A DNA stretch of 64,000 nt, from contig CM060734.1 in the NCBI GenBank assembly GCA_030704615.1, forward strand, positions 1,736,001 to 1,800,000, read 5' to 3'. This DNA is from Takakia lepidozioides (lineage: Eukaryota > Plantae > Bryophyta). The notes beneath the pieces were generated by a model, which was not told the DNA's origin, ran no database searches, and was given only the letters and a program-made list of their open reading frames with translations. The position numbers and the translations under genes are program-made. This document shows, one piece after another, positions 4,036-44,919 of the stretch (position 1 is the first letter of the stretch; each line of letters starts with the position of its first letter).

Positions 4036-4039
4036 GATC

Positions 4040-19524: not shown

Positions 19525-20439
19525 TGTCGTGCGCATACATATCGCCTGGGGGGTGCACTCTTTATAAACTGTGCGTATCACGTGCGTTCGTCGCCTAATA
19601 AAAAAACCCCTTGTATATGGGTCCTTGGATAATTTATACCCCCTCTATACATATTTTTTGAAGATTATAAAACCCCCCTGTGTAAATATACAAAAATTTA
19701 CAATTTTTAAAAAGTACCCCCTTCTGTATGTATATTCTCATTTTCCATCATTAAAAATAACCCTCCAATATGTATATGTATGTTTTTATATTATATCGAA
19801 TTTATTCATTTAAAACATAATAAAATATAACAAATTAATTAAAAAAAATTGCCTTTGATAAAGTTGTCAAAGACTTTTTGGTCATTTGCATCAAGTACAT
19901 ATGTGTTTGACTTGACATTGTACTTTAAACATGCTAACGCGATAATGGAATCCAAATCAACCATCATGTTATCCGTCAAATCGTACGTATAGGTTTTCTT
20001 TGGAGAAGAAGCCAGGTATCCCCCTTGCTGATTTGTCCGACTTTTCTACTGTCCAATCGGATGATTGCATTGTGGAGGCTTTGAAAACTGGATTTCTAGA
20101 AGCGCAACTTTTATGCCATAAACTTGGGATGAAACCAAACAAAGCGACAAACTTGGATTGGTGGAATGAGCCATGGACAATTGAGAGACAAATGGAGGCC
20201 GAGCTATTCAAAAGCATGGAAGATGAGGGTGATGATGTCGATGCCATAGATTCTATTTGTCCTCTTAATGCAGACACACATATTCAAAATGAGGTCGTGG
20301 AAGATGAATTGGTGTGCGGGCCTTTGAATTCAATGGAGGATGTTTTGAGCCAACCTTTGATGATCATGCGGAAGAGGTACTTATTCAGAGTGAATTGAGA
20401 CATACTCTGGATGCTGTCATTGATGAGTTTGAACAAGAG

Positions 20440-21548
20440 AAATGTTTCTTGTGAGCTCTTGAGAACTTGGGTCCTTTTGGATTCACCTCGAACTCGGATA
20501 TGCGTGTTAATGCTCCCGCACTCTCAATCAAATCACACCCGTCATATGTCCTCTCATTCCGTAACATACCTCCCACTTTGCTGAAGAATATTTCACACAC
20601 ATCTGAACCAACAAGGCTCAAAGGAACTTGCACATGATTAAACTTATCCTTGAACAATTTGATAAGTAGAACCACGTAGTGGCATGAAATTTGTAAATCC
20701 AAGTATGCTTCCCTGCTAATGAAGAAGGATTTCATATTATACACCTCGTGGTGGAATAACCACAACTTCCACAATCTGAAAAAAAACGATACCTTCGCAG
20801 CAGATTGTACCCTCTCACACAATGACATGTGAGGAGACAAAAAAATGTCGATGTAGCATGAAATGATGTATAGGTAAATTTCAGTACCTTTGGTCCTCTC
20901 CCTTCGATGATTCACAGTTGATTGTAACTCCCTCAAACAAGCTTGCACCTTCCGAGATGCCAGTCGTTGAGCTACTGCCCAATTCTGTCGATCTTCTCTT
21001 TTGATATCACATTCCCGAAGTCCATGCTTGTCCACTGAAAATGAATGGTAGACCAATAACACATGATTCAATGTAGCAACCTCATCACCCAACACCAAAG
21101 TCCGTGATGCACTGTCCAAGGGATTTACCAATTTTTTCCCATTATGGATGAAGTCCTGATCATGGAGTCCGTATATATCTCCCCCGCTGCACACTCGACC
21201 TGTAAACAACCATCCTTCCCAAGGGATGCAAAATCTACTTCCAGCCCCATTGGCATAATCTTCTAACATCACTTTTCTCCTCCTACTATCTCCGTCTGAA
21301 GCATGCCCAATTATAGGCCCAACCACGTCCCTCACATATTTGTTCCACAACTGTCTCACCACTTCCCATTGTGATCTCACAAAATTGTTGTCAAATCTAT
21401 TGCAAGTGAGCTGGATTACCAATACCAATCGAGGTAATCGTACATGTAGAGGATTTGCTATCAACCACTCTGGCGTAATGGCAACCACATTGTTTTTGAA
21501 TGCCTCCACAATATGTTCGTACCCTGATTCCCCTTCTCCCACTTGCAC
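20440..21548 (-). pseudogene. P-element-like transposase catalytic core (N-terminus missing; probable C-terminal part inverted at ~20000-20440 on +)
   Basis: GHASDGDSRR (D), QDFIHNGKKLVN (DxxH..K), DRQNWAVA (resembles P GTP-binding insertion motif), GSDVCEIFFS (resembles P-type D..E.FFS, catalytic E). Family call is from motif memory only. Confidence 0.7.
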
Positions 21549-22766
21549 CAGATCACATTTCTCTTAGGCATTTTGTCAAACACTTGACAGGCATGCACCA
21601 CATTTCCGCACTTGCAATACATGCTCACAAGGGCATTCCCCGCCTGGATATCTGACACCAAAGCAGCTTTGATGATGCTTGCATGGAGCAGCTTGCCCTA
21701 TTCCAGAGCTAGAGGGTTGGTGCAAGCAGTAAGGATGTTAATGAAAGTGGCCTTGTCAGGCTTCACACCTTCTCCTTGCATGCGTGCAAAGAGTTTGAAT
21801 GCTTCTGCACCTTGCCCTTGCTGAACTAATCCTGCAATCAAGGCATTCCACTACATTTCTCCGAGGCATCTTATCACACACTTGGAGCGCATTAGCCACA
21901 CTCCCACACTTGCAATACATGCTCAGATGGGCATTCCCCACTAGAATCCAGCAACAATGATGCAGGCCTGGAGCCAATTGCCCTGCTCCAGAGCTGCTGG
22001 GAGGGAGCACGCATTGAGAATCCCAATAAATGTAACCTCGTTAGGTTTCACTCCTCCTAGTTGCATATGTCGAAAGAGGTCGAATGGTTCTGCACCATGG
22101 CATTGCTGAGCTAATCCTGCAATCATCATTGCATTCCATGAGATCACATTGCGTTTGGGCATTTTGTCAAACACTTGGCGTGCATGCACCACACTCCCGC
22201 ACTTTGCAATACATGCTCATAAGGGTGTTTCCAACAAAAATGTCTGGCTCGAATTCATTATTGAGAATGTGGGCATGAACCCCCCTTGCCAATTGCCAAA
22301 GCTTTTGTTTTAGCACATCCCTGAAGAAGGCAAGCACAGGTCTGCTCATATGTCTCCAAAACATTCCTACGACACCTATGCTTGGTAAATCTTTCCAACG
22401 TAATATTCCACGTGATCAAAGATCATTGAGGCATTCTGTTGAACACTTGGTGAGCATCCCTGATGCTCGGCACTTAACATGCATATTGACAAGGGTACGT
22501 GTTGAGTAGAAAAAACATCTGTCGTGAACCCACTTTGGATAATGTGAGTGTGCACCTGCTTTCCAGCTTTCGAGACCTTCCATCTTGATGCACTTAAGCA
22601 AGAGACAGACATACATATTTGAATTTGCTAAAATGCCTCCTTGGTTTAGAATCTGTAGAGCCTCTGTCAGGCTGTCTGCCGCACAAAGTATCTTCACATG
22701 CCCAGAAATGTCAGAAGAGGCATTGTGGACTCCCTCTCTTGATCCTCTTTCAGAAGCTGTGGTCAT
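21545..22766 (-). pseudogene. PLS-class pentatricopeptide repeat (PPR) gene fragment, frameshifted, inside the P-like element
   Basis: Repeated motifs GNALVSMYCKCGNVVHACQVFDKMPKRNVI, ISWNAMMIAGLAQQ, GVKPNEVTFIGILNAC, GKQVHTHIIQSGFTTDVF. Confidence 0.9.
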
Positions 22767-22819
22767 GGTTGAGGTGCCTGATTATATCATCTGTGCCGCT
22801 GCAATAGCTGCCTTTAGTT

Positions 22820-23520
22820 TACCATCTACCCATGTAGGTTTCTTGTAGCTACTGACCCACATGGAATCAAGGTAATCTGGAGCTTGAAGTCCAACCCTCG
22901 TGGATGAATCTGGACACACACTCTATCCCTGCTCCTTCAGGCAAAAACATGGAAAAACTCTGATAACAGGGAAAAACAGGCTGAAATGTGTTGAAGAATG
23001 TACCTTCATTAGCATCGCCTTGTTCTATCAATTGCACTGCTGCCGCTGATGTTTCCAGTTGACCATCTACCCGCGCGATTGCTTGTAGCTATTGATCCAC
23101 AGGGAAGCAGAAAGAAACTTGTGTTTGAAATCCGGCCTCTTGGATGAATCTGGACCTCTATCCCTGGTCCTCAGCTATCCCTGCCTGTGGACAAATCATG
23201 AATACATCCTCAGCCTTGCTACTAGCAGCTGACACTGATGGCATGAAGTTCTTCCAGCAAACACCCTAAACCCTAATGATGAGAGGGCAAAACAGACTGA
23301 AATAGGTTGAAGAAGAAGGTATAGGGAGCACAAAATCACTCCAAAACCACCATAGATCCACCAACGAGCTAACTTGCAGAATTCAACATGAAAAATAAGG
23401 GACGACTCTACTAACAGGGAAAACAGGCTGAAATGCGTTGAAGAAGGTACCTTCATTAGCAGTGCCTTGTTCTATCAATGCGCTGTTGCCGCTATTGTTT
23501 CCAGTTGACCATCTACCCAC
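22820..23520. repeat. Local duplications upstream of the PPR fragment
   Basis: ACCATCTACCC..GGATGAATCTGGAC at ~22820 and ~23062; AACAGGCTGAAATG.GTTGAAGAA.GTACCTTCATTAGCA at ~22975 and ~23422. Confidence 0.7.
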
Positions 23521-25162
23521 GAAGAGAAAACACAGAGGTTGAGAATATAGCTCCAACTAGACCACACTTCTGCTTATCTTTCCACGATGATTCCTTCCAA
23601 GTTACTCCATAAGAACGATAGAAGGTCCAAAGTCATCCAGCTTCTGTGTTTATGTATGACACCGCCATGAGACTAGGTTATGGGAGCCACAATTCTTTGC
23701 CGACATTGTCAGTGCTACTGTCTCTTCTGAGGACATTGTTACTTTTCATGGTGGCTTACAGTGCCACCTCAAGTTTCGAGGCTCTAGGTGCTTGATGGTA
23801 AGGTCAATGACATGTCTGTAAATGGCTGAAAACTGTACACCTGTCACTCCTCAGAGGCCTCCAAATACTTGAACCCAGGACTCCCAATAAGGTAGCCTCA
23901 TGGAAACCAACCCAGAATATAGACATTGATCTAAATACCTCCTCATTTGTGTGCCACAGCTATGGGGTGGGGCCTCAAGCTTCCACAAACAGCAGCCTTG
24001 ATCTATCTACTAGCTCTAAGATTATCTCTCATTGAATATTCGAATCCAGGAGAGGAGACACTTGAGACAGAGAGATAAAATGGTGTCTTGAGGCTTGCAC
24101 GACTTGTACTTTGAAAGTAATTTTGTTGACTACAATCCTTGCTCAAAGAGCAAGTATGGCGCCCACCTGAAGATTGCACACACAATCAGGAGATGTGTAG
24201 TTCATGCAGACAAATACATCACCAAAATCTGAAGCCTGCTAAAGTAGGTCCAAAGAACAACAAAAGGAGTAAGCTGCCTATGCCTCCCCACACCTTCACT
24301 ATTGCTCCATCGCATCCCCGCCACCACTGATGCCATTGTCACCATTCACCTCAACCAAGCACACATGGACATCTGCTGGTGAGGTGACAGTCTGCGCATG
24401 TCAGGCACCCATGTGAAGCCACAAGCACAACTACTGGAACCATTAACTACATGAAACCCCTACATTTCATAGTGCAATAAACCAAAAAAGTGTACATAAA
24501 AACCACTAGAAATTGTGATAAAGGTACCAAGAGATGAAAACTTTGAGAACTAGAGAGGGAGAGTACCGAGACACAGGCATAATATGCTTCCCCATTCCAC
24601 CATGCATTCCTCCTTCTCCATTGCCCCTTCACAAATTTCTCTGAATACCATCTGCTTCCCACCAAAAAGCAGAGATTGAAACATGGCCTGCTAAGACCTA
24701 GCTGACACGGAAGGGGCGCGTGAGGAGGGAAAAGAGAGCCCACGGGAGACAGATCGCGGGGAGAAAAGAAAAAAAAGAAAAGCAAAACAACAGTGCATCG
24801 CGATTTGATCCCGCGGTGCATTACGACACATTCTACGTCCTTACCACTAGACTACTCCTACAATTCAATTACCCCCTCCTGTAAGATTATATTTAAGGTG
24901 ATTTAAACCCCCCTCTATATGTATATGTTGTACATGGAGGGGTTTAAAATACCCCCTCCTGTGCACGCACGTGGCTGGTACATATTGGCTGGAGTGCACC
25001 CCCCAGGATATATCGCTACACAACTACATCATTGTCCAAAACCACACAACACATGTGCACACCACACACTAGTATACCACTAGTCCAGCCACTAGTCCAA
25101 CCACTAGGCTACAACTAGTCAGTCACTAGGCTGCCCACTATGGCAGTCACTAGTCCATACAA

Positions 25163-25644
25163 TGATAAAGAAGAAGAATACAAGCACAAGCTCATGCGAG
25201 CTCACAAAGCTGAAGCATAAACTCATGCATATATAACCTCATCACTCAAATACAAGTCAAGCCAAGTGCACCCCACGCCATGGGGAATCCACACTACGGC
25301 GCCATAGCTAGGCGCGGTGAGGCTCAACTCGAGAAAGATGAGCCTCCTGCGCTTGCCGTGAAGATAACCACTCCAGGGCCTAAATCTGCCTTGACCCCTG
25401 GATTGACACTTGGGCCAATCCCAAATGTCAATATGTAAAAGCTAGCTATTTCCTAGCTAGTTTCACACTAGTGGTAAAATAACTTGACAGCTGTCGTGCG
25501 CATACATATCGCTACACAACTACATCGCTGTCCAAAACCACACAACACATGTGCACACCACACACTAGTATACCACTAGTCCAACCACTAGGCTACAACT
25601 AGTCAGTCACTAGGTGCCCACTATGGCAGTCACTAGTCCACACA
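25163..25644 (-). repeat. M1 B1-gc-A2 block (the complete reverse-transcription-defined LTR following the PPT)
   Basis: Follows PPT AGGGGGCGAT; starts TG, ends TTTATCA; contains the GACA-GC-TGTC junction at 25486-25495. A2 matches 35817-36143. Confidence 0.88.
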
Positions 25645-25898
25645 ATCGCCCCCTAGCTGGTGCTTAGGTCCCTCTAAGTCCAGGTAGCCACAAGATGTGA
25701 TAGTGACCATAGCCTCACTAAGTCCTCCACCACTATCCCTACTACACTCAAACTCGATAGATCAAGAGGCCGGGTGCAAGAGTTGCCCCATCGTTAGTCG
25801 CCGTCTTGCAACCTGTGAACTTGAGCTTGGGATCTCATGTATTGACTCCTATGAGCTTGGCCTCCCATGTCTTGTTAGCTGCCTCCAGTCATGTCCAA

Positions 25899-26050
25899 CT
25901 ATCCCAAGCAGTGTGGACACAACCAATCTCCGTCAGGAACCTTCTCAAGAGGTGGTGTCAAGCATCCCATATGCCAACCCCTTGAGCATCGATCACACAC
26001 CAGCATGGTGGCTGCCCCTTTGGCAGACCCACAGAGCATGCACCTCAAAC
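25899..26050 (-). CDS. PHD finger at the C-terminus of M1 integrase
   Basis: CMLCGSAKGAATMLVCDRCSRGWHMGCLTPPLEKVPDGDWLCPHC, a canonical Cys4-His-Cys3 PHD. Confidence 0.93.
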
Positions 26051-29000
26051 CTGCAGGTACCACTGCCAAGTTTGGGTCAACTCTGCCATCGACATTGGGA
26101 AGGTGACATGGCGCACAATTACGCACATGGTCTTTCCAAGTCATGCCATCCCGACCCTCCAAGATCAGGACCCTGAGGGCAACACCTCTCGAACCCTCAG
26201 AATAACACGCCCTGCAGTAACATCCAGAGTCGTAGGAGCAGTCTGCTGCAAATAAACATAGTCACCAGGGCTAAACCTCCGAACCCCAGGACGATATCCT
26301 CCACCACGTATAGTGGCATACCTCAACGTATCACGGTGCTGTGCAATGGCAAGGTTCTCAAAAGCCATGGGCATGACTTTCTTGAACAACTCTGCACGCT
26401 GATCACATGCACGTACCCACACGTCCGGATCGTCAAGGTTAAGGACTTGAGCAGTGTCCCTACGAATGGCTGCAGGCAAATCCGGCTCTCGGCCAAAGAG
26501 AGAAGGAAATAGGCAAGTGATGCTTGTTTGCTGAACCTGTAGCCCATGGCTAACCAAGGAACCTGAAGATCCCAATCTCCTAGGTGTCCCTTCTGCAAGC
26601 CATACTTGCGCAAACCCCTCTTCACCGTCTGAACAACTCTCTCTGCCAAGCCATCGGCCTCAGGATGATCCCGAGAAGTGGTGCGGTGGTCTATCAAGGC
26701 TTTATCACACAAAGCCTGAAACTCCCCCAAGAACTCTCTCCCTTGGTCCGTGAGTACCTCAGCTGGAGCACCAAATCGGCTAAGCACACGATCCAAGAAT
26801 GCATACGCAGCCCCCTCACTAGCCTTGTCAGGCAATGGAACCAACTCAATCCACTTGGAGAAGTGCTCCACCATCACCAACACATATCTGTGGTGGCGCA
26901 TAGTCAGTGGCAACGGTCCTGCGAAGTCAAGACTCCACCTGTAGCCCAATCCCATGATTGGTAAAGGATGCAACTGTGGTGTAGGGGCGTTGAATGAAGC
27001 ACGCACCCTGTCACACCCATGCACCTAGCCACGAACTGTTGCACCTCTGTATGCATACCACGCCACCAATACTGCCCCTGCAGTAAACTGTGAGTGCGTC
27101 GCACTCCAAAATGCCCCAACTCCTCATGGGCATGCCGCACTAACCGTGCACGCTGTGTGGGTGAGGCACAATCCTCACCCGACCATCCTCCCACACTCGA
27201 AGTAGGTGTATCCCCTCCCACTTGAACCTCTTGGCTCGTTGCAGGATCCGATCCCTCTCCCTGGCAGTCACAGTGGCTGCCGTGTCTCCCGTGCGGAGGT
27301 AGTCCAACACAGCCGAATCCTCATGTATATCTCTGGCACCACCTGGCTCATCACTAGCCTCAGGGTCCTCAGACACTCCGTCTACAGTCATCCCTGTTGT
27401 AGGTCCAACCTGACCTCCCGATGCCAAGATACACAAAAATGCAGATGCGTGCCATCCCGCACCATCTCCTCGTCCGTCTCACCATGCCACCGAGCTCCAG
27501 TGTCATCCTGCTGGCTCATGCATGGATTGCGACTCAATCCATCCGCATCCCGATTGACCAAACCCGGTCGATGCACAACCTGAAAGTCATACTCCTGGAG
27601 TATGAGTGCCCACCGTGCAAGCTTCCCCGTAAGCTTGTCTGACTCCATCAACCACTTGAGTGGCTGGTGATCCGTGACAAGGGTGAAAAGATTGCCGTAT
27701 AGATAGCACCTGAAGTGTGCCACGGCCCACACTGCAGCTAAGCACTCTCCCTCATATGAGCTGTACTTAGCCTCTGCAGCGTTGTTCGAGCGGCTAGCAT
27801 AAGCCACTACGAACTCTCTTCCCTCATCATCCACCTGTGTGAGCACCGCTCCAAGCCCCAGCATGCTCCAATCCGTATGCAGCTGAAAGGGACGCCCCCT
27901 GATAGGTCGTCTCAGATAGGCGCCGAGGTCAACCTCGCCTTGAGCTCTGAAAAGCTCGTTCCTGCTCATCTTCCCACTGCCACTCCTGGTCCACCTTGGT
28001 CAGCTTGGTTAGAGCCTTTGCAATGGTACTAAATCCCTTGACAAACCGTCTATAATAGTTTGCCAACCCCATGAAAGCTCGAACTCGGCTCACATCCGTG
28101 GGGCGTGGAATTTGTGCAATGGCCTCTACCTTAGTCTGCTGTACCCCCAATCCTCCAGGATATATCATGTGACCCAGATACTCAATCTGGTTGTGGAAAA
28201 ACTTGCACTTCCCCGGATGCAACTTCAATCCGTGCGCTCTCAAGCGCTCCAATACCACCTGAAGGTGTCTCTCATGCTCCTCCATCGTAACACTAAAGAT
28301 GATGATGTCATCTATGTAGCACCGAGCAAAGTCCACCCCTGCTAGAATCCTATCCATGACTCTCTGAAACTCTGCAGGAGCATTCTTAAGCCCAAATGGT
28401 AAGAACCGCCACTGATATAGGCAATCCTTGCCGTGCTCATTGATCCCCCAGAATGCGTCTTCTGCTTGTCCGCCTCCTTGATTGGCAACTGGTGATATCC
28501 GGATCGTAAATCCAAAGTGCTAAAGACCTTAGCATGCCCGATGGCATCAAAGATCTCCTCTGGTGTTGGCATGGCATACTTATCGGACTTGGTCTGACGA
28601 TTTACAGGCCGGTAATCACCGCACATACGTCTCTCCGTCCAATTGCCATAGACATCCTTCTTGGCTGGCATCACTGTGGCTGAAGCATACTCTCCACCAG
28701 AGAGCTCCACCAAACCTGCCTCCCAGAGATCTTGAGTCCTCATCTGAATCAAAGACCTCTCCATGTCACTGTATCTATAGGGTCTCCGAAAGATTGGCGT
28801 GTCAGTGGCCAACTCAATACGGATCTCTTGACCCTTCAGTGCTCCCAAGTCCTTCAAACTGAAGGCAAAGCAATTCCTGTAAGCCCTCAGGAACCGCCGT
28901 ATACGTCGTCTCTCTCCTCCGGTGACAATGGGTCCAATGTCAGGCTCCCAATTGTCCTCCGTAACTGCAACCTTAAGTCCAGTGGGCTTAGAGGTAGAGG

Positions 29001-32000
29001 ACGCGTCCAGTGGTTGCTATGTTGCAACCTCTTGAGCAGTACTCCCTACCTGCTCAGTCAATGACAAGGCCTCATCCTGCCCATCATCTCATCCTTGAGG
29101 ACCTCCTCAACCCGAGAAGAATCCCCAACCTCATCCATCACAGCCGCCTTGGCTGCCAACTCCCTCTGAACCTCGAGCACCTCCCACGTGTGCCATGGAT
29201 GCATGCACCCCGTGGTCCTCACATGCTCGCCCCCACTCACTGCCTGTACCGTCTCGGTAGGCAGAGAGACCATCGAGGGAAGTGTACTCCGCACTCTGCG
29301 TTGCTCAGCCAGCCAAGCTGATAATCCAGGTCAAGCAATTGAGATCCATTGCTTGCCCCAACACTTTGACGACGTGATGCCTCAGAAAGAGACGACACCG
29401 CCGTGGTACCAGTGGTAAAACCCATTGCCCGCTCACGCTCGTCAGCATTAGGCTCCACTAACTGCTGCAACTGAGCATCCCACAGGAGGCCAGGTCCACT
29501 ATCCCGGAAAGCATGCGATCCTGGGAAGCTGAGCAGTGTAGGTAATGCTGCTCGTGGTTGACCCACCTTGTTGACCACTGCCAAAGGCGAACGTCATCGT
29601 GTCTCACACGCTGAGACTGCCTCCCTGTGTCCAGAATGCTATCCACTGTGAGATGTGCTGGCCGCTGCACCCCATCAAATGCACGCTTGAGCAGTGCGGG
29701 TGGCATCAAGTTAGTCCACCATAGCCGTGGACGATGAGCCCGTGACCCCACTGTAGCTGCATCTAGCAACACTGCTGACCCAAGCCACGACCGGACTTGA
29801 TGCACACTGGCCATCACCCTGGCCCGAGAATCGCCCATCAGTGGCACATTCTCCAAGATGTATGCTGGAGATACAGCTTGATGAAGCTGCAAGTGGCGCA
29901 AAACCCGCACCATCTCCCAAAACAGACCCGACCTCGAGTCTCGCAATCCATTGCCATGCCCGGCTGATGAATGCCCTTGGCAGGGCCAACCTGCCACTAC
30001 CAGATCAATGGAGCCAACCCGCTCCAATCCTGCGCCCCCAGCAACGAAATGTCTGCTGGCAAGGCCTGCTGATATCCACGAATTGCAGACACCGACAACA
30101 ACTCAGGGTACCGCTGCACCAACTGAGCAACATGGCGAAGTGAAACGCGTCGTGCAGTCTCATCCCTCTCCACATACAGGTAACGCCGAACTCGTACACC
30201 TGCCTGTAACACAGCCGTACATCCTGCCGAGTAACGTAGCAGCCAATCCGGTGCTGATCCCCCGCCAAACAAGTCCAGAAGACAAATGCCTTCATCCGGA
30301 TACTGCCACACAATAGGTGTGGTGTCCAATGGAGACAATTGAGGTGGTCCTGGTGCAATCCCGCACTCTCCTCCTCTCCTGACGGTACAAAAGCCTCCAC
30401 CAGGCTTGTTGCACCCGTCGATCAGCATCCCGCTGCAAATCCTTGCTCGTGCCCCACAATGGAGTCTGAGCAACCATGGTAGGCAACTCCGCCATACCAT
30501 ACATGTCATCCTGCTCTCCCGGAGGTGGCACATCCTCTGAATGAGCATTGCCCTCAAGCAACTCTCTAGGCCAACTCACTGCCGCTGTGAATGCTGCTAG
30601 TGTCGGCATCTTGCCTCGCTGGGCAACCGCAACTCCTCCTATGAACGTCACAGGGAGCTGCACACGCCGGCCCTCCCCTGACTGCCATGCAGGCCTATAG
30701 GAAGCTGACTCCTCCCAAAAATCCAGGGTGAAGCCCATGGGGTACAACACTGCCCCACCAACCAGGACATCGTATGAGACGCGTCTGTCACAATGGCCTT
30801 GGCTCGCATCACTGAGCCATCTGTAGGGTGATCCGGCCGTAGTCTGATAGCCAACTCACGCCGTGTCATGCCCCGAGCCTGCTCCGATCCTCCCAGAGAC
30901 GTCTGTATCTGGAAAGGACAAGGCTCCATATCCGCCTCCGTGAGGCCCAAGCCTGCAATAGCAGCTCTGCCCAGCATCAATGGCTGAGCTCCCGAGTCCA
31001 ACAAGACCCGCAGTGGCCGGTACCTCTTGCCTGCCGGTCCACTCAAACAGAAAATGCCATCCTGGTTGTCTAACATGACAACTCCAGGTGTCACCATGGC
31101 GCGCTCAATGGCTGGCCTAGCTGGCAGCTCCATCAACCTGGCAGCTGCAGCTTGCCATGGCGCCGCCGTGGCAGTCTTGACCCTCAAATCCGAGGATCCC
31201 TCCGGCACTACACCTCCCACTATCTCCGCAGAAGATGAAGTAACCTCCCCACTCTCACAGAGTGTAGCTGCCAGCCTGAACACCTCAGCTGGTCTTACCC
31301 CCGGCGTCGCAATCATGGTAGCCGAGAACAATGGAGCCTGGCACACAGATGTGGCCGCTCCTAGCAGCACACTAGCTGCCGTAGCCTTGGCAACACACTA
31401 GGTAGTGGTGCTACCCGTGTAGCTCTCCCCAATGGCATAGTAACCTCCGCCTCGGTAACAGTCGGGCGAGAACTAGGTGCCATGGATGGTCGAACACTGT
31501 CGTCGTCTCCAATGTGAATGACTGAGGAAGCCTAGCCTGACGGCTTGCCTCCCACGCTGTGGATCCAACTCCACCTCTGCACCTCGTGGCTCAGGAACTC
31601 GTGCTGCTCCTCGAGTCACGGCTGCAGCAGACTCCACCTGCACTAGTGGTAGTGCTGCTCCACACATGAATCCCATGCCTCCCATATCTCCTCCCTCAGG
31701 AGCAGGAGGTGGACCATCCGGCCTTAGAGCCGGTACCACCTGAGCTGTAGCCATGGCAGCGAGCCTCTGCTCTAGCTGCTGAAGCCGGTTGGCCATGCCT
31801 TGGTCAACACCCTGACCTCGCGTCCTTGGCCATGTTGAGCTTGCCCTTGGCCTGCACCTCGTGGCTGGCCACCTCGTCCTCTCTGGGCTGCTCCACCTCG
31901 CCCCCGGCCACCATTGTTCCCTTGGAACTGGCCTGGGCGCAACTCAGGATGCAAACCATAACACTGGGCCTCTCCATGCCCGTGCTTGCCACAATGCCCA

Positions 32001-33133
32001 CACTGCAACTGTGCAGGCTGTGCATGTGCCGGCCCTTTGCCTCCCTCTGGGCAATCCTTCTTGACATGGGGTCCTCACATGTCCAGCACACCACATCCGC
32101 CCGTTGTTGGCCAGCAAATGAAGGGAGAGACCCCTGCATCTGAGGTCCTCTCTGCCCTTCCCTGAGCTTCACCTGAGCCCCCTTGTTGCCTTGAGCACGT
32201 TGAGGTAGTGGTTGGCTAGGAGCACCACTACCCCGTGGTGTCTCCTTAGCAAATCCCACCATGACCACTCGTTCCTCCACCATGTTGAGCTCTATCCGCT
32301 CTGCCAGCAAAAACACATTTGCTAAGGTGGGTTGGGCCGCTTGTAGGAGAGTTGCATCCCGCACCCTTCTCCTCAGCTCCTTGTCCAATATCCCATACCA
32401 GAATTGGACTGCCTGAGCTTCCGTAACCCCTTGGGTTACATTTATCAAGCGCCTCATGCGAGTGAAAGCCTCCCTCAAGCTCTCGGTCGGCTTCCGTTGG
32501 AACTCTTGCAAGCTCCGCAACTTCTCTGTCCTCACCCCTTGGTAGTTCCCTCTCAACTCTTCGAAGAACTCCACAACAGGGTTGAAGGCAGGCACGGGTG
32601 CTAGTGCTGGTGCGGTAGTGGCTTGGGTGGACGTCGTAGCTACTGTACCACCAGTCCCACCAGTCCCACTGCTACTTGCTGAAGCTGCCGGTGCAGCGGC
32701 AGGTGTAGCCACTGCCCTCGTGGCTCTAGTGCCCCTAGTGATGGAGACATAGTCGGTGACCAGTACATCCTCCACTCCTCGATCTCAACCTCATGCCCCC
32801 GCCTGAACTCATGGTAATCATCCATAGGCGGCCCCTCAAGGTGCTGAAACAGCCCCTTCCATGCCATGAAAGGCGTAAATAGTTGTGGATTGCGCATTTG
32901 CTGCAAATCACACCAACTATCAAACTCTTGGATAAAATCATCCAACTCGATGGTGCCCACCGCCCCAGAGTACCTTCGTGGCCCTTGGTAGCTCCATACA
33001 TCTCCTCCATTGTGTCCCACAACAATGGCAAAGAAACAACTTGCACCGCCGGTATGAGTCCTCCACAATCCGAATCAGAACCTTCCGTAGAAGACACAGG
33101 AGGTGAAGGTGGCCTAAACCTCCGTGTTGACAC
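25899..33133 (-). CDS. gag-pol: M1 gag-pol polyprotein (frameshifted): gag with two Zn knuckles, aspartic protease, C5-DNA methyltransferase, RT, RNase H, integrase, PHD finger
   Basis: CGHCGKHGHGEAQC; VLLDSGAQP; DNMT motifs; RMCGDYRPVN, LDLRSGYHQL, CYIDDIIIF; HTDWS, VTDHQPL; HEELGHFG, SLDFAGP, LTDQG, GLAERVV; C4HC3 PHD. Confidence 0.92.
29310..30300 (-). CDS. DNMT3-like C5 cytosine methyltransferase domain in M1 pol (between PR and RT)
   Basis: I CLLDLFGG; II YLYVERDETA; IV DLVVAGWPCQGHS; V GLRDSRSGLFWE; VI YILENV; VIII LDAATVGSRAHRPRLWWTNL; IX ERERAMGF; X SLSEASRRQ.(LGQAM). Confidence 0.93.
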
Positions 33134-33829
33134 TCAACCGGTCATGAACATGTCCCTAACCCCCTCTCCACAAGGTAACCGGGTAGAGAACCTGTTGCGG
33201 CTTATGGTTTGGAATACTAAGTTCCTAACATAGCCTACACCTGTACCTGCATCCACCGCAAGCACTCCTATGGTTGGCTGGTCATCACCTCCAACCTCAC
33301 CACAGGAGAAACAATGATGGTCTGGCTGGTCATCACCCCAGCCTCACCATCGACAGCATGCTCTAGGACTGGCCGGTGATCAAATCCGGACCAATCACCT
33401 ATAAAAACAAGCGCCCACACAAAACTAGCATGGCGCACAGTCAAGCATGCAGGTATGGAGGGGATCCAAACACAAGAAATCAGAACGACAACTCCCCCAC
33501 ACCAAAAACAACTCCACGGTGTTGCTCCTGCAAGGACACCCCAGCCCAAACCCGGACTGACTCTTGCCTCCACCTACGGAAAGGTCTTGGCCTAATGAGA
33601 GGGTGGAAACTACGAGGAAGAGAAGCTAAAGCAATGCCTAACCCCAGCATGCCCTCATCCCAACACTCTTCTCTCCTCTCTTCCCTCACTTGCATGACCA
33701 TGGGAATATCATGAAGATACTCCTCAAACCGCCCTCCACGAGCTTCAAAATTCGGCCTTCAGACCACATGCCAGTCCTTAGGCAGTCCACCAGTGCCTCC
33801 ACGAGTCAGCACAGGCCGCACAGGTTCAA

Positions 33830-34290
33830 GCCGTCACAACAGGTCCTTTTTCCTGCCTGTCACAGTCACAGTTGCCCATCCACACAGGGTCACAGGGTTC
33901 ACACACATGCCCAACAGGGGTCACACACAGTCTTTTTCAGCCCCTCACAGCCCCAAAGGCCTCAGGCAGCCCCTCACAGCCCGTCACAGCCCCAAAGGCC
34001 TCAGCCTGTCACAGCCCCTCACAGCCCCAAAGGCCTCAGGGCCTGTCACAGCCCCTCACAGCCCTCACAGCCCCAGGCCACACAGGCCTGTCACAGCCCC
34101 TCACAGCCCGTCACAGCCCCAAAGGGCACGGCCTGTCACAGCCCCTCACAGCCCCTCCCAACAGGTGCCTCACATCACAGGCGGGCACAGCCCACAGGCC
34201 CATTGCCTCACAGCCCCAAAGGCCACAAGCACAGTCACACAGCACATAACAACAGCCCGTCACACACAGCCCGTGTCACAGCCCCATCCA
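33830..34290. repeat. CACAGCCC-rich tandem array in M1 5' leader
   Basis: Many copies of (T)CACAGCCC and CCAAAGGCCTCAG. Confidence 0.9.
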
Positions 34291-35804
34291 TGGCCGCTCT
34301 GGCAGTTTAGCCATTTCTCCAAGGGGTTTAGCCACGCCAAGCTAGGGTTTGTGTCTCTTGGACTCTAGGCTTCTTTCCACCGAGCTATGGCGGCTGTGAG
34401 GAAATCAGCAAGGTATTCTTGCTCTTTCGGCTCCCACACACCACCATAGTAGCCCTAAGCCATGAGGTGGTTGCCACAAACCAAGCCTTCTTTCTCACTT
34501 AGCCTCCCCAAACACGCCACTAAACTCAATGGCAAACAACCAAGCCCTGCTGGTTCCCAGCCCTTGTGAGCACTCATTCAAGCACTCTCCTTGGCCATAG
34601 CATCTGTCTTAGAGCCTATTCCAGCCCCCTACACCTGCTGCTTCAAGAGTTGCGCTCCCTTCAAGCTTGAAGTTGAAACCCCAACTCACATAGGCCCTAC
34701 AAGTGCTTTTCTTTCACTCCAAGTGGAAACCAGCCCTAGACCTTCCGTTCTAGCTCTCTAAAGCTTGAAAACAAGAGCCTCAATGGGCTGAAGGCATGCT
34801 CCACACATGCCCCACTCTCACCATAAGAGAATCAGCTCCTTTGCTTCATTTCTTGCACCCACAAACCTGAAAATACAAGCTTCAGCAGGCTGAAAGCATG
34901 CTCACATGCCCTACAGGGAAACCAGCCCCTTCCTTCCTTTCTTGCACTCCCACACCTGAAAGTGCAAGCCTTCACCAGGCTGATAGCATGCTCCACACAT
35001 GCATTGCCCTCACATAAGGGAAGTCAGCCCTTCCCTCTTCCTTGCTTGCCCTCCAAGCTTGAAGATGGAAGCTTCAATGAGCTGAATACATGCTCCACAC
35101 ATGCAACCTCTTCACACAAGAGATATCAGCCCCCTATCTTGGCTCCTTGGCTCCTTGATGCTCTCTAAGACAAGACTAAGCACTCCACAGCCTTTGCCAA
35201 GCTCCTGAAACCCTAAGGCTTACATTTCCAGCCACAAGACACTCTCTTGTGGTGCAAGAGCTCTTCTTCCAAGCTCTGAAACCCTAGGTGCACATTCCAT
35301 GGCCTTGCCGCACCTCTTAGCTCCTGTTCCAGCCCTGCTCTTGCCATGACAAGAGCCCTCTCAATGCTGAAGCTCGAGATTGAAACCCAATCTCACCATA
35401 CTCCACAAAGTGCACTGATTTGCCCCAAGCCAAATCAGCCCTTTCGCTTCTTGTCAATCCTTCACACAATGAAAGCTCGCATTCCCAAGTCCAGTTCTCA
35501 GCTTTGCCACCAAAGCCACTATAACCTGCTCTTGACTGGTCCTCTTCCCAATCGTGCTTGCTCATGCATGTACACAATCTGAAACCATCAAGGTGCTCTG
35601 GAATTACCTGCAGCATGGTGCTTTCATCTCTGAAGCTGAAGATCGAATGCCAAGGTCTACCACCTCGTAACCCACATCGCCTCCGCTTCTAACAACCAAG
35701 AGCTCCACGGTGCTCCTTGCATAACAACTTGGTTTCTCTCATTCTCAAGCAAAAACCACAAGTGCTACAACTAACTCGTATCTGGCACTCACAGATACGA
35801 GCTC

Positions 35805-35816
35805 ATCTTTCTCGAG
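35805..35816 (-). promoter_or_regulatory. Putative self-priming PBS of M1 (CTCGAGAAAGAT), complementary to 35982-35993 inside A
   Basis: Directly follows the ...TTTATCA end of A1; complementarity extends to 17 nt (35801-35817 vs 35981-35997). Confidence 0.7.
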
Positions 35817-36143
35817 TGATAAAGAAGAAGAATACAAGCACAAGCTCATGCGAGCTCATAAAGCTGAAGCATAAACTCATGCATATATAACCTCATCACT
35901 CAAATACAAGTCAAGCCAAGTGCACCCCACGCCATGGGGAATCCACACTACGGCGCCATAGCTAGGCGCGGTGAGGCTCAACTCGAGAAAGATGAGCCTC
36001 CTGCGCTTGCCGTGAAGATAACCACTCCAGGGCCTAAATCTGCCTTGACCCCTGGATTGACACTTGGGCCAATCCCAAATGTCAATATGTAAAAGCTAGC
36101 TATTTCCTAGCTAGTTTCACACTAGTAGTAAAATAACTTGACA
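35817..36143 (-). repeat. M1 repeat A1 (5' terminal)
   Basis: 327 bp; I see two substitutions versus A2 (25163-25489). Confidence 0.92.
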
Positions 36144-37966
36144 GAGGAGATATGGGAGGCATGGGATTCATGTGCGGAGCAGCACTACCACTAGTGCAGG
36201 TGGAGTCTGCTGCAGCCGTGACTCGAGGAGCAGCACGAGTTCCTGAGCCACGAGGTGCAGAGGTGGAATTGGATCCACAGCGTGGGAGGCAAGCCGTCAG
36301 GCGAGGCTTCCTCAGTCATTCACATTGGCGGAGACAGTATCGACGCCATCCATGGCACCTAGTTCTCGCCTGACTGTTACCGAGGCGGAGGTTACTATGC
36401 CATTGGGGAGAGCTACACGTGCAGCACTGACACCTGCTACCAAGGCTAGTGCAGCCGGTGTGTTATTGGGGGCAGCCACCTCTGTGTGTCAAGCCCCACT
36501 ATTCTCGGCAACCATGATTGCAACGTCCGAGGTACGACCAGCTGCAGTGTTCAGACTAGCAGCAACACTCTGCGAGAGTGAGGAGGTCACTTCATCTTCT
36601 GCGGAGTTACTGGAAGGTGTAGTGGCAGAGGGATCCTCGGATTTGAGGGTCAAGACTGCCACGGCTGCGCCATGGCAAGCTGCAGCTGCCAGGTTGATGG
36701 AGCTGCCAGCTAAGCAGCCTTTGAGCGCGCCATGGTGACACCTGGAGTTGTCTTGTTAGACAACCAGAGAGGCATTTTCACTTTGAGTGGACCGGCAGAC
36801 AAGAAGTACTGGCCACTGCCGGGTCTTGTTGGACTCAGGAGCTCAGCCACTGATGGTGGGCAGAAGTTGCTATTGCAGGTTTGGGCCTCGTGGAGGCGGA
36901 TATGGAGCCTTGTCCTTTCCAGATATAGACATCTCTAGGAGGATCAGAGCAGGCTCGGGGCATGACACGGCGTGAGTTGGCCATTGGATACAACCAGATC
37001 ATCCTGTAATGGCTCAGTGAGAGCCAAGACATTGTGACAGATCGGTCTCTTATGATGTCAGGTTGGTGGGGCAGGTTATATCCCATGGGCTTCACCCTGG
37101 ACTTTGGGAGGAGTCACATCCTACAGGCCTGGATGGCAGTCAGGGGATGGTCGTCGTGACAGCTCCCTGTGACATTCATTGGGGTATGTGGCTGAGCGGG
37201 GCAAGATGCCAACACTAGTGCCTTTACAGCTTACAATTTGGCCTGGAGGTTGCTGGAAGGCAATGCCCATGAGAGGATGTACACCTCTCGTAGAGCAGGA
37301 TGATATGCATGGTACGGCGGAGTTGCCTGCCATGGTTGCTCACACTCATTATGGGGTACGAGTAATGCAGCGCTGCTGATGGACAGGTACAACAAGCCTG
37401 GGTAGAGGCCTTCGTACCGTCAGGAAAAGAGGAAGAGTGCGGTGTGCACTAGGACCAAGTTGTCGCCATTGGACACCACACTCTTGTGTGGCAGGGCGAT
37501 GAAGGCATATGCCTTCTGGACTTGTTTGGCGGGTCAGCACTGGATTGGTGCAGTACTGCAGGCAGGTGTACGAGTTCAACGTTACCTGTAGTGGAGAGGA
37601 TGAGACTGCACGAACTGCGCCATGTTGCTCAGTTGGTACAGCAGTACCCTGATTGTTGCCAGTGTCTGCAGTTCGTGGATACCAACAAGCCTTGCCAGCA
37701 GACATTTCTTGTTGGGGGCGCAGATTTGGAGCGGGTTGGCTCCATTGATCTGGTAGTGGAGGTTGGCCCTGCCAAGGGCATTCATCAGCCGGGCTGGCAA
37801 TGGATTGCGAGACTCGAGGACGGGTCTGTTGGAAAATGGTGCGGATTTTGCGCCACTTGCAGCTTCATCAAGCTGTATCTCTAGCATACATCTTGGAGAA
37901 TGTGCCACTGATGGGTGATTCTCGGGCCGGGTGATGGCCAGGGTGATGGCCAGTGTGCATCAAGTC
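36144..37966 (+). pseudogene. P1 gag end, protease and DNMT N-terminal half (many small indels)
   Basis: MGGMGFMCGAALPL.., RVLLDSGAQP, ICLLDLFGG, LERVGSIDLVV..WPCQG, ILENVPLMG; homologous to M1 ~29790-31690. Confidence 0.85.
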
Positions 37967-38684
37967 TGTCGCGGCCCTTTGCCTTGAGGGCAGGGGGTCG
38001 GGACACATGAGGGGCTGCCCCTGTGGTGGGGGCAGCGGCAGCGATAGGTATGGGGGGCTGAAGCACCCTTGAGTGCCCAAGGCACTCAGGGAAGCGGAGG
38101 CGCTCACTAGGTGGAGCCCCGCACACCGGGTTGCGGTGGGGGTGGCTCCACAAGGGGTGGTGGTAGCTTAGGGGACTTAGTGGGGGTGGCATAGGACTCA
38201 CCATGGGGCGGAGACCTCGTGGTGGGAGTCGTGGGAGTCTTGGGACTCATCACGGTCCATAGGGGCCGTGGTGAGTGGGCCAAGACTCACCGCGACTCAC
38301 CACCGGGAATCGAGGGTTTCGTGGTGGTTCGCCATAAAATGGCATGGCTGGTTGTGAAAACCCCGCGGACAGCTACAGAAGTATATATAGGGAGTAGTAA
38401 CCCCGAGAACGGTGCAAGCCCGTTGGTGACCAAAAACTAGTGAGTAAGCGAGCGAGCCGGAAAGCGACCAAAGAGTGGGGAGCTGTTCCGGACTGCCATC
38501 TACCAAAGGGAATTCTCCTAGTCCCAATAGGTGGAGGGTTTAGGGAAGCGAAAGGGGACCGTTATGTCCCGGTGAGCAGCCGAAGCTCCAAGTTGGCCCG
38601 GCGGCCAGGTTGGGAGTCAGGCGCGCGCATCAAAGCGAGTAACTATGACTTGAAGGGGAGCTTACCGAAGTGAGGTGCGCGACA
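37967..38684 (+). repeat. C1 5' LTR
   Basis: Direct repeat of 44192-44914. Confidence 0.95.
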
Positions 38685-38686
38685 CT

Positions 38687-38698
38687 TGGTATCAGAGC
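38687..38698 (+). promoter_or_regulatory. C1 primer binding site (tRNA-iMet)
   Basis: TGGTATCAGAGC, 2 nt after the LTR. Confidence 0.95.
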
Positions 38699-38739
38699 TT
38701 AGAGTTCAGTACGCGATCGTCCTTGGGATTGGCCTCATC

Positions 38740-41700
38740 ATGGGGTCGGGCAAGCCGAAGCGAAAGCGGAACGGCCCAAAAGATGATGATCCCGGTGAGC
38801 CCGATGGGGGCGACGTGTCACCGAGGCGGCCGTTTGAGGAAGCGATGCATGTTTCCGAAAACGAGGCCGCTCAAGAGCGGGAGGAATCCGAGGAGTCGGA
38901 GCCCGAGGAATCCTTGAGAGCTCCGACAAACCAAGAGATGCCTCCCATGCCGGCAGCCTTTTGGGAAGGGTTGTTGGCGCAGTTTGGCGGGACGTTGAAA
39001 GACGTGTTGAAGGCGGCTAATGCCACTTCCACTAAGGCAAAGTTTAAGGTGAAGCCTAAGGAACCCGGCACCTTCGAGGGCGTCCGAAATCGGAAGGCAC
39101 TCAACACCTGGCTCTTGGAGCTAGAGCAGTACTTCCGGGCGGCCAAGTTGAGTGACGAGGATCGGGTGGAAGTGGCTCCCACCTATTTGAGGGGCTATGC
39201 TCAACAATGGTGGCAGAAACGCCTTCACGACCGAGGTCCAAGCCCGGAAACCTTGAACTGGAGTGGGTTCAAGGAATTGATGAAGAGACAGTTTGTGCCC
39301 CAACGCGTCCTGGCTTGCCCGGGACAAGATGAGGAATTTGAAGCAAACAGATGACATTCGGGGGTATGTCCAGGCTTTCAATGTGCTGTTGCTCGAAGTC
39401 GCGGACATGGCAGAACCAGAAATGGTCTTCAACTTTGTGGCGGGACTGGCCCCATGGGCCAGGCGGAAGTTGGAGGAGAAGCCACCCAAGACTTTGAACG
39501 AGGCATTGAGAGGGCTGAATGTTTCTCGGATGTCCCTAGGGGTGAAAGACAAGGCCGTACGGAGCTGAACCACAAGAAGACCCGGCGGGAAGGTGACTCC
39601 TTCCGACCGGAAAAGAAGTGGGATAGGCCACGCGGCGAAAATGGCACGTGGAAATCGAAGGGAGGGCCTTCACACGTCAAGGCGGCACCCGGTGCTTCGA
39701 AAGGAAAAGCGGGTGGAGCGGCTTATGGCGGACAGAAGGCGACCTTTGATGGAGTGTTTTCAATTGCGGGGAGCCCGGGCACATGGCCAAGAAGTGCACG
39801 AAGCCCCGCAATTGAACATGACTCGGGCGACCACGGAGCTGTCGGAAGATACCATCAGTCGCTTGGTGGAAGCGGTGGTCGCCAGGACTTGCAAGGTAGG
39901 CAAATTTCTTGTGAGTTGTATCAGGAAACTGGCGCCTTACGAAAAGGGAGTCAGTTATTGTTCGTGGATGGGATAATATCCGGAACTAATGTGTCGTTGT
40001 TGGTGGACACAGGAGCGTCGCACTCCTTCATGACACCGGCAACGGCACAAAAGCTGGGACTCCCGACAAGTGACGTGGGGGCCTCTATTGAGGTGCGTTC
40101 TGCCAAAGGAGAACCACAGTTGGCGACAAGGTTGGCGTTTGATGTTCCTCTTCAAACTGGGGAGTTGGGAGGGACGTGAGAACTTCACCATCTGCGAGAT
40201 CGATGGAGTGGATCTCATTTTGGGGATGACCTTTTTGAGCAAATCCGGAGCGGTCATAGATGGCCGCAAGAGAGTAGTCACGCTGCCATGTGGGAATGGT
40301 GGCGAGGTTTACGAGTGTCGGAAACGCCCAAATCCGTGGGAGGGCGAATAACCTTCTGTCAGCAAAGGAGTGGGCCGTGGAGGAGGCACACGAGCCCCAG
40401 TTTTTGCTTTACATTAGAGAAGTGAAAGGAGAAGGCGATGGGGAGCCGAGCCCAGATTGGATCAAGGGGATTTTGGAGAAATACCAGGATGTGATGCCGG
40501 AGGATTTACCAAGCGGCTTGCCACCGCGAAGAGGAGTTGACCACAAGATTGAGGTGATACCGGGATCGGAACCGCCTGCCAAGGCGCCCTACCGGTTGAG
40601 CCACAGAGAGTTGGTCGAGCTGAAGACTCAGCTCAAGGATCTAATGTCAAAGGGGTACATCCGGCCGAGTAAGTCACCTTACGGAGCCCCGGTGCTATTC
40701 GCAGACAAGAAGGATGGGACGCTGCGGATGTGTGTCGATTACAGGGCTCTGAATAAGGTGACTATCAAAAACCGGTACCCTTTGCCAAGGATCGACGACC
40801 TCTTCGATCGGTTGGCAGGAGCGAAGTATTTCAGCCGGATCGACTTGCGCTCCGGCTATCACCAAATTCGGGTGGCGGAAGGAGATGAGGAGAAGACCGC
40901 GTGCAGGACAAGGTATGGTTCATATGAGTTCTTGGTGATGCCTTTTGGGCTCACCAATGCACCAGCGACATTTAGCACGCTGATGAACAGCCTTTTCCAG
41001 GAGTGGTTGGATGACTTTGTGATCGTGTACATCGACGACATCTTGGTGTACTCGAAACAAAGGAGGAGCACCTGGAGCACCTCAAAAGGGTGTTCCAAAA
41101 ATTGCGAGAAGGGAAGCTGTATGCCAAAGCTTCAAAGTGCGAATTCGGGGTCACAAAAGTGGTTCTTGGGGCATGTGATTACACAGGATGGGATCAAAAT
41201 GGATGACAGAAAGGTGAGGGCGATCTTGGACTGGGAGCCTCCGACTTCGGTCCCGGGAGTGCGATCCTTCCTAGGACTCGCCTCCTATTACCGGAAGTAT
41301 GTGAGAAATTTCGCCAAGATCGCGGGGCCGCTGTCGGACCTTCTGTGTAAATCCAAAGTCTGGGCATGGAACACCTTTTGTGGCCAAGCTTTTGCTGAAT
41401 TGAAGCAGCGGATGGCGGAAGCTCCAGTCTTGAAAATCCCGGAGTTCGATCGTCCATTTGAGATTCATACAGATGCGTCGGACTTCGCGATTGGGGGTGT
41501 ACTTATGCAAGATGGACGTCCAGTGGCTTACGAAAGTAAGAAACTGAATGAAGTGGAGCGACGGTGGCCGACGCACGAAAAAGAGATGAAGGCGGTGGTG
41601 CATTGCCTTGAGCTCTGGCGCCACTATGTTGGTTCCAACCCAGTGAAGGTGTTCACGGACAATGTCACGGTGAAGTATTTTGCCACGCAGCCAAGTTGTC

Positions 41701-43286: not shown

Positions 43287-44191
43287 TGGGGACATCAACC
43301 TTGGAGCGTGGGGGAGGAAATGCATGCTTAGCCCGGTTTAGCTAGCTCAGGAATCCGATTGCAAAAAACTTGTATTGTACAAAAATTTGTTATAAAGGAA
43401 ATGGGTTCCAAATATTGTGCGTCCTATTTGTTTGGAATGGTGATGCATGGTGTGGTTGGCTAGTGTGTAGAATGCATGCTAGCTTACAAAAGTGGGAGAG
43501 GTAAATTGGGTTAATCGTGTGTTTGCGCAGTGCCGAAATCGGGTGACCCCATCCAAGGGGCAAGGAAACTTGCGCCTTCTTTGGGAGTTCACGTGCTAGT
43601 GCGCACCTGGCGCGTGCGCGTACTATAACTGCGCTACCGAGGGGGTTGCCTTGTAGTGCGGGCTAACGCGGAAGCTACGTGCTTCCGTTCACGTACTATA
43701 ATCGTGTAGCCTCGGGACGAAGTCGTAGTGCGGCTTCGGCGTGTTCCCGTACCTCAGGCCAGCATTCCAAGGCGGACCCAATTGTAGTGATTGGGGCGCA
43801 CGGTTGGTTCAAGGTTATCTTCCTAGTCAAAGAGGGTTCCAGGTGAACCCTTGCTCAAGGTGATGCCAAAAGCGGCATCATGAGCGATCGCAAGCAATGT
43901 TGTTGCAGTAAGGCGATTCGATCCTCGGGGAGGATCGTTCCTTGGCCTTGAAGTAGGCCAAGAAGAGTGCACTGGGAGGAGCTGGAGAGGCTCCACCCTT
44001 GGCCGGGACTTGGAGGAAGTCGGCCGAACTAGCTAGTGGAGAGTAGAGTCAAGTGTGGGGTTTGGTTCTTTGCCATGGGACGCCATGGTACGGAAACAAA
44101 CTCCTTGATGTGGGACGCCACAACTTGGATGTTCGTTTCTACAAAATGGACAAGTCGATGAGGACATCGACTCCCTGTTGGTAGGGGTGTG

Positions 44192-44914: not shown

Positions 44915-44919
44915 AAGTC

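Follow-up and report, generated by a model that had tools for sequence, protein, structure and literature searches.

The window analysed here, 64,000 nucleotides of Takakia lepidozioides DNA (assembly GCA_030704615.1, contig CM060734.1, positions 1,736,001 to 1,800,000), holds two nested copies of a Ty3/Gypsy retrotransposon in which a DNMT3-like C5 cytosine methyltransferase domain (hereafter DNMT) lies between the aspartic protease (PR) and the reverse transcriptase (RT). In both copies, termed M1 (minus strand) and P1 (plus strand), the domain is followed by an in-frame stop codon that is conserved in related loci. We regard the window copies as broken members of the KnitGypsy-Dnmt3 kind of element. 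Intact relatives would make a Gag-PR-DNMT protein ended by a leaky UAG, with the methyltransferase present at capsid level and methylating the element's own double-stranded complementary DNA (cDNA) in the particle before integration. To this reading as a whole we give about an even chance.

The M1 domain (29312-30299) is broken by frameshifts. Its six motifs nevertheless stand in the canonical order I-IV-VI-VIII-IX-X, all on the minus strand: LDLFGG (motif I, 30278-30261), GWPCQ (IV, 29991-29977), ILENV (VI, 29859-29845), AHRPRLWW (VIII, 29739-29716), ERERAMGF (IX, 29440-29417) and VLGQAM (X, 29364-29347). They are flanked by the protease motif LLDSGA (31004-30987) and the RT motif YIDD (28318-28307). 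The longest open piece, 29458-30102, matches Pfam DNA_methylase (PF00145) with E 6.2e-13 and 49.3 bits against a cut-off of 22. In P1 the same motifs are found on the plus strand at 37516-37904 and 44974-45366, interrupted by a 6.95-kb long terminal repeat (LTR) element. An earlier note on this DNA, made from the letters alone, had proposed these motifs in this order and place, their recurrence in P1, and a kinship with DNMT3 rather than with the permuted DRM enzymes; all of this is borne out, and the Pfam search it had suggested gives the match stated above. Both copies retain the catalytic cysteine and the ENV of motif VI. Among 80 related metagenome loci, which were collected via the DNMT itself, ENV is retained in 68, and the PC dipeptide in all 80, a count that is partly circular as one search pattern included WPC.

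By its rank in profile and fold searches, rather than by nesting among host DNMT3 proteins, the domain is DNMT3-like. When a profile of 24 relatives was compared with solved structures, DNMT3A, DNMT3C and DNMT3B came out on top (E 8e-18 versus 6e-10 for DRM), followed by DRM, DNMT2 and bacterial enzymes. The predicted model of the relative P0005 (76% identical; pLDDT 92) has the Rossmann fold of C5 methyltransferases, and its best Foldseek match is DNMT3A/B (E 6e-20, target TM-score ~0.83) rather than DRM, DNMT2 or HhaI. A DRM identity was ruled out by the unpermuted motif order and by the alignment of the N-terminal half of the profile to the C-terminal end of DRM chains. Likewise, a stand-alone host DNMT3 gene was ruled out, given the protease and RT on either side and the absence of DUF3444, for which Pfam gave no match in the open reading frames (ORFs) of the window or in the intact Gag-PR-DNMT protein P0015. 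Neither a host DRM gene nor a DIRS element nor a chance ORF was accepted as an explanation of this region. The ESM Atlas returned a generic DNA_methylase cluster only.

Substitutions between M1 and P1 indicate that the DNMT is under purifying selection in motifs VIII-X and I-III. For motifs VIII-X (158 codons) ω is 0.17 (confidence interval 0.06-0.37, p 1e-6), and for motifs I-III it is 0.18 (p 0.005); the dN/dS comparison put forward in the earlier note thus falls well below 1 in the catalytic C-terminal half. RT, RNase H (RH) and integrase (INT) overall range from 0.05 to 0.25, with values of 0.05 and 0.25 for RT and 0.15 for integrase-PHD. These M1/P1 values were computed without filters, whereas for the dN/dS of locus pairs a filter on local identity, which depresses dN, was applied.

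In M1 the Gag-PR-DNMT frame is closed by an in-frame TAG (29019-29017) followed by CAA CCA, together a predicted readthrough signal of the CARYYA type (29011-29019, minus strand). The same TAG CAA CCA is found in P1, with the stop at 45700-45702. In both copies it lies between the DNMT frame and the RT, ~100 codons past motif X. The C-terminal half of the P1 DNMT is open up to the TAG, the M1 RT is open from the TAG onward, and RT, RNase H, integrase and PHD finger follow downstream in frame. Hence the earlier note's picture of a DNMT inside the Gypsy polyprotein holds as far as the position between protease and RT is concerned, but the domain closes the Gag-PR frame at the conserved stop, and given this stop the joining to RT and integrase that the note had assumed would occur in this lineage only upon readthrough.

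Conservation of the stop was followed at several levels. In the sequencing runs X3, X5, X7 and X14 (three organism labels) no variant of 2% or more is seen at 29011-29019, and adjacent positions vary. The junction could be aligned in 56 of the 80 metagenome loci, the remaining 24 (L027 and L076 among them) falling short of it or failing to align. Thirty-five of the 56 have TAG, 21 have TAA and none has a sense codon; the stop is followed by CAA CCC in 54, by CAA CTC in one and by CAA CCA in one, and 51 of the junction sequences are distinct. The divergent locus L027, with a saturated pS of ~0.78 against the window, reads TAG CAA CCA. Proteins of Marchantia and Calypogeia as well as P0038 terminate at the column matching the stop, the fragments P0419 and P0420 earlier. 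Gag, protease and DNMT align in a single frame in L004, L008, L009 and L027. Independent support for the stop amounts to about three to four lineages with saturated synonymous sites.

The surroundings of the stop have the features of a CARYYA signal, namely UAG-CAR-YYA and a downstream frame that is open and constrained: ω is 0.11 (p 0.01) for the first 23 codons past it. Eight of the 1489 TAGs in the window are followed by CARYYA, two of them being these junctions. In M1 the first 84 codons past the stop contain no in-frame Met. Folding of the native, unshuffled 100 nt past the stop gave no hairpin common to four sequences. According to PMC4132726, CARYYA after a stop stimulates readthrough in plant viruses, and PMC2754532 gives, for the context of tobacco mosaic virus (TMV), 6-10% readthrough in stable lines of Arabidopsis and 32% in transient assays. 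As described in these two sources, the TMV type resembles the window element in its UAG-CARYYA, here UAG plus CAA CCA, and in the replication enzyme in frame downstream; unlike in TMV, the putative readthrough site of the window follows a protease and a DNMT in a retrotransposon. Taken together, we predict readthrough at this stop with considerable confidence. Locus L066 contains another element with a DNMT (3235-4609, minus strand), far more divergent and decayed, which has TAG CAA TCA at 3372 between DNMT and RT, in an uncertain frame.

M1 spans 36143 down to 19525 and is nested within P1, which spans 15120 to 49695. Both elements start with TGTC, finish with GACA and are flanked by 4-bp target-site duplications (TSDs), GAGG at 36144-36147 and 19521-19524 for M1 and CGTT at 15116-15119 and 49696-49699 for P1. 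From 5' to 3' they encode gag, protease, DNMT, RT, RNase H, integrase and PHD. Apart from the DNMT, this gag-PR-RT-RH-INT order, the DDE integrase, the TG...CA ends and the short TSDs are those of Ty3/Gypsy elements; a tyrosine recombinase gave no match in the ORFs scanned, an rve integrase being present instead. Rather than two full LTRs, both copies have the repeat order A, internal region, G-rich tract, B, GC, A, B, and their inner B-A junction forms the palindrome GACAGCTGTC. Because the first and second A repeats (A1 and A2) are 99.4% identical in M1 and 98.6% in P1, both insertions are young, as the earlier note had supposed. No primer site of the tRNA-Met type, the only type sought, was found behind A1. 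Of 17 related loci checked for split repeats, both pairs are present in L066 and L073 and a single pair in each of L004 and L023. L073 carries a 4-bp duplication, AAGG. The palindrome, found in the window at 25492-25489 and 49172-49181 and also in L004, L023 and L073, resembles a joined pair of integrase ends. Directly ahead of B1 at the palindromic junction stands a conserved ~30-nt sequence that ends in the G-rich tract.

On the minus strand, M1 begins with A1 (35817-36143, starting TGTC), followed by a long 5' leader with tandem repeats (33011-35816) and the frameshifted gag (31800-33010, lower end approximate), which starts with MEEMYG at 33010 and has a zinc-knuckle-like motif at 32002-31976. 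The protease (30650-31100, limits approximate) matches the Marchantia protein P0015; its Pfam Asp_protease_2 hit (E 0.011) is below cut-off. Past the DNMT and the stop come RT and RNase H (27388-29016), the first part in frame with the stop, and the DDE integrase with its C-terminal PHD finger (25908-27200, upper end approximate; PHD at 26042-25908; Pfam rve E 3e-14, PHD E 1.7e-11). After the G-rich tract, the 3' repeats (25010-25646) consist of B1 (25646-25492), GC, A2 (25489-25163) and the first part of B2. The remaining B2, the true 3' end with GACA, lies at 19525-19545, separated by an element at ~19546-25007 that has terminal inverted repeats and a ~9-bp duplication. This element sits within the last repeat of M1, contains a 392-aa ORF (20388-21563) with no Pfam match, and is presumably Mutator-like.

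P1, on the plus strand, starts with A1 (15120-15550, beginning TGTC). The end of its gag, its protease and DNMT motifs I-VI follow at 36148-37963, P1 having been split here by the M1 insertion. Motifs VIII-X and the linker (44915-45702) form one open frame to the TAG; RT, RNase H, integrase and PHD (45703-48830) carry frameshifts and stops; and the 3' repeats (49088-49695) comprise B1 (49088-49175), GC, A2 (49178-49610) and B2 (49608-49695, ending GACA). The insertion in the P1 DNMT (37964-44914) is an ordinary Ty3 element. Its LTRs measure 729 bp (97.9%), its primer site at 38687 is presumably of the tRNA-Met type, and its scanned ORFs gave no DNMT match. At 18170-19278, a P1 gag segment 77% like the M1 gag is inverted relative to the rest, an inversion or an assembly artefact. 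The tandem repeats differ between the long 5' leaders (16829-17193 in P1, 33940-35130 in M1). Between the A repeats of M1 and P1 only 19-30 nt matches are found, though pol is 91% identical; the ends turn over much faster than pol or were swapped.

Since the DNMT motifs of M1 are spread over several frames, M1 as assembled could not make the enzyme. Other family copies, compared over 28400-31000 in four sequencing runs, read differently at the breaks near 30259, 30025, 29592, 29365 and 29310, and these breaks are thus not general to the family. The frameshifts may reflect decay or assembly error; many are 1-nt losses in short runs, yet the A repeats align gap-free. In runs X1 and X3, 27,205 and 30,174 short contigs match 2.6 kb of M1, as those of a large, varied family would; these figures are no copy number.

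A search with motifs IV-VIII gave at least 85 matches among 400 candidates, the named ones coming from Marchantia polymorpha, M. paleacea, Calypogeia fissa and Sphagnum, most of those with full coverage at 67-77%. These relatives bear out the land-plant range anticipated by the earlier note. The Klebsormidium protein KFL_009030040 matches the same motifs at 54%, a profile search extends the matches to Mesostigma and Haematococcus, and a full hidden Markov model scan gives 376 clusters at E 1e-30 or better. Fern, lycophyte and seed-plant names do not occur among the matches listed in the motif and profile searches, whose candidates shared words with the query; viral contigs gave three pattern matches and no relative. 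With custom profiles, 253 proteins were classed as having the DNMT after the protease or before the RT (58), after RT/RNase H or before the integrase (89) or alone (106). Pfam confirms the order RT-RH-DNMT-INT-PHD for Scenedesmus sp. PABB004. A large Gypsy clade whose DNMT stands between RNase H and integrase comprises P0103-P0105, P0108, P0111, P0279, P0429 and others, including Scenedesmus sp. PABB004 and Haematococcus lacustris.

Trees were built with IQ-TREE in quick mode (LG+G4, SH-aLRT supports only), the DNMT tree holding 61 proteins and being rooted on four phage methylases. DNMT and RT trees give the same clades: bryophyte (99 and 100), Klebsormidium-type, P0069-type and RH-DNMT-INT (99 and 100). 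The window's clade in the DNMT tree (21 rows, support 99) has members that end after the DNMT or carry the stop, except P0010, a Marchantia gene model that skips the stop region. In this clade the stop appears to be derived, because proteins of the Klebsormidium and P0069 clades continue into the RT. Under phage rooting the RH-DNMT-INT group is nested in the PR-DNMT rows (supports 80-94), a topology that fits, as a lead, one capture followed by a later move of the domain. The DNMT-bearing rows stand apart from three DNMT-less Ty3 rows (97); these quick trees with thin outgroups do not resolve a sister relation between the bryophyte clade and that of Klebsormidium. Recent horizontal transfer among bryophytes is disfavoured because synonymous sites are saturated between lineages, which leaves older transfer unaffected.

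The closest described system is KnitGypsy-Dnmt3 of Klebsormidium nitens (de Mendoza et al. 2018), regarded in PMC5890265 as a capture in the K. nitens lineage. As presented there, it shares with the window element the Gypsy domains and DDE integrase, a Dnmt3-like domain that is unpermuted and stands between protease and RT, repeats in the DIRS-like order A-coding-B-A-B and purifying selection on the DNMT. However, its DNMT lies within the Pol ORF and its host is an alga, whereas the window element has a conserved stop after the DNMT, a land-plant host and a bryophyte clade of its own (99 for DNMT, 100 for RT); the Klebsormidium-clade proteins P0073 and P0088, too, run from DNMT into RT with no stop. 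The window element is, tentatively, best read as a stop-bearing variant kin to KnitGypsy-Dnmt3, not as a separate capture. SymbioDIRS-Dnmt3 of Symbiodinium also has a Dnmt3-type domain in a retrotransposon with A-B-A-B repeats, but according to PMC5890265 it uses a tyrosine recombinase, in contrast to the DDE integrase, 4-bp TSDs and TG...CA ends found here. The host enzymes PpDNMT3a/b, representing DNMT3 of seed-free plants, share the unpermuted DNMT3-type catalytic domain; PMC6453930 describes a C-terminal DUF3444 for them, while the window domain, in which none was found, sits in a mobile element. Gypsy-7a_cRei of Chlamydomonas is likewise a green-lineage Gypsy element with a PHD finger, a DNMT not being among the domains listed for it in PMC9940879. 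A literature search, with subscription papers mostly outside it, found no report of such elements in land plants or chlorophytes, nor of the stop; PMC12344493 gives the range as 'streptophytes and dinoflagellates', and supplements there and in PMC5890265 may bear on it. Tentatively, and at somewhat less than even probability, we envisage an ancient Ty3 lineage of green plants in which a single DNMT3 capture was kept in chlorophytes, charophytes and bryophytes. The domain would have shifted between two sites of the polyprotein, the leaky stop of the land-plant-holding clade would load particles with the enzyme at capsid level, and new insertions would arrive self-methylated.

In an intact element, translation from the ATG corresponding to 33010 would yield Gag-PR-DNMT, and occasional UAG readthrough the full polyprotein adding RT, RNase H, integrase and PHD. 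Since the stop closes the Gag-PR-DNMT frame, production of the methyltransferase would equal that of Gag, and RT and integrase would likely depend on readthrough, leaving DNMT several-fold or more above RT and integrase. It would enter the particle with Gag, be cut free by the protease and meet double-stranded cDNA first. The DNMT is probably catalytically active, and cDNA as its main substrate is slightly favoured. Once methylated, the cDNA could be mistaken for host DNA or could determine which chromatin state the new copy adopts. The integrase, with its PHD finger, would pick sites and leave the 4-bp duplications, likely inserting linear DNA with TGTC...GACA ends; the inner B-GC-A junction may template both ends, GC being the two bases trimmed from each.

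Several observations weigh against this model. Both window copies are broken. Phage C5 methylases match the domain too (E 1e-15), and the DNMT3-like class is assigned by rank. Between M1 and P1, ω is 0.69 for motifs IV-VI, on just six changes (p 0.65), and 0.76 for the linker preceding the stop. The stop itself is TAA rather than TAG in 21 of the 56 loci, most of which belong to one family matching named Sphagnum proteins and hence are not independent; the CAA CCC of 54 loci in this Sphagnum-like family is one base away from CARYYA and is followed by an in-frame ATG, and L076 reads TAG TAG CCA. CpG is 0.51-0.54 in the DNMT element versus 0.91 and 0.28 in two DNMT-less Ty3 elements, and CpG/CHG depletion was dismissed as a footprint of self-methylation, not being diagnostic; C-to-T differences between M1 and P1 (7.9% in CG, 8.5% in CHG, 4.3% in CHH) are consistent with ordinary host methylation. 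Finally, PMC5890265 reports no methylation in yeast by the Klebsormidium domain, a result its authors call inconclusive. This last result would also agree with a domain that catalyses little or nothing and is retained because it binds DNA or serves the structure of the particle, as would the GWECQ motif IV that replaces the P-C dipeptide in 59 of 143 distant relatives. The cysteine persists even in this GWECQ class, however, the window copies keep both Cys and ENV, as ENV is kept in 68 of the 80 loci, and the related SymbioDIRS-Dnmt3 domains methylate CG de novo in yeast according to PMC5890265, which makes a non-catalytic role distinctly unlikely.

Alternatively, surplus Gag-level DNMT might be freed and work in the nucleus on the target site, the integrated element or host chromatin, damping the element or altering host methylation. 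The stop would provide far more enzyme than one cDNA requires, the integrase PHD finger may read chromatin, and such options are raised in the discussion of PMC5890265; Pfam, on the other hand, shows no companion targeting domain in the intact Gag-PR-DNMT protein P0015, and PMC5890265 describes the Klebsormidium methylome as land-plant-like despite its copies. We consider this unlikely, though worth keeping in mind. How RT-RH-INT-PHD is made could also differ: splicing over the stop or re-initiation would leave DNMT in excess and unfused to RT and integrase. The bryophyte gene models P0010, P0044 and P0102 do link DNMT to RT while skipping the stop region, but they skip it at differing points, as predicted introns around a stop would, judging from the protein models. 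Similarly, the ATG two codons past the stop in the Sphagnum-like family is missing from the window copies (CTG, CGG) and from L027 (GTG), and the codons directly past the stop are constrained, so that we hold this route to be improbable. The stop could, lastly, be an old inactivating C-to-T change common to dead copies, with the DNMT a hitch-hiking relic; every copy known at the DNA level is decayed, and close locus pairs give DNMT ω up to 0.82 (L004-L012). Yet an identical stop and context recur in lineages with saturated synonymous sites, no sense codon occurs in the 56 loci, the insertions are recent with 4-bp TSDs, and ω is 0.17, leaving this reading largely refuted and very remote.

Elsewhere in the window, a host RING-H2 (ATL-like) gene at 59860-60366 groups with moss proteins (FastTree 0.97, one short gene), which makes a moss host likely. 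A 1-kb inverted repeat (149-1177 and 2995-4026, 86% identical) encloses ORFs without Pfam matches. Mobile remnants at 6470-9170, 54326-55165 and 62662-63408 comprise Ty3 RT-RH-INT, a DUF659 fragment and two zf-RVT fragments. Rfam gave no matches in the window and ARAGORN no tRNAs.

In conclusion, the present data add to the known picture the bryophyte range, the conserved stop behind the DNMT and, in green algae, a second arrangement. In 2018, with a Gypsy example from a single alga, it was still undecided what retrotransposon DNMTs do (PMC5890265). Marchantia gene models such as Mp_4g09160, a 1,278-aa Gag-PR-DNMT protein in a cluster of 18, open this question to study in a model plant for which genetics and methylomes exist. 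Annotations of bryophyte genomes can mistake such copies for host DNA methyltransferases and count them as such. The stop behind the DNMT predicts a given enzyme-to-RT ratio and suggests that dose is under selection. If new insertions are indeed self-methylated, these elements would represent a transposon-encoded source of de novo 5-methylcytosine in the model plant Marchantia.

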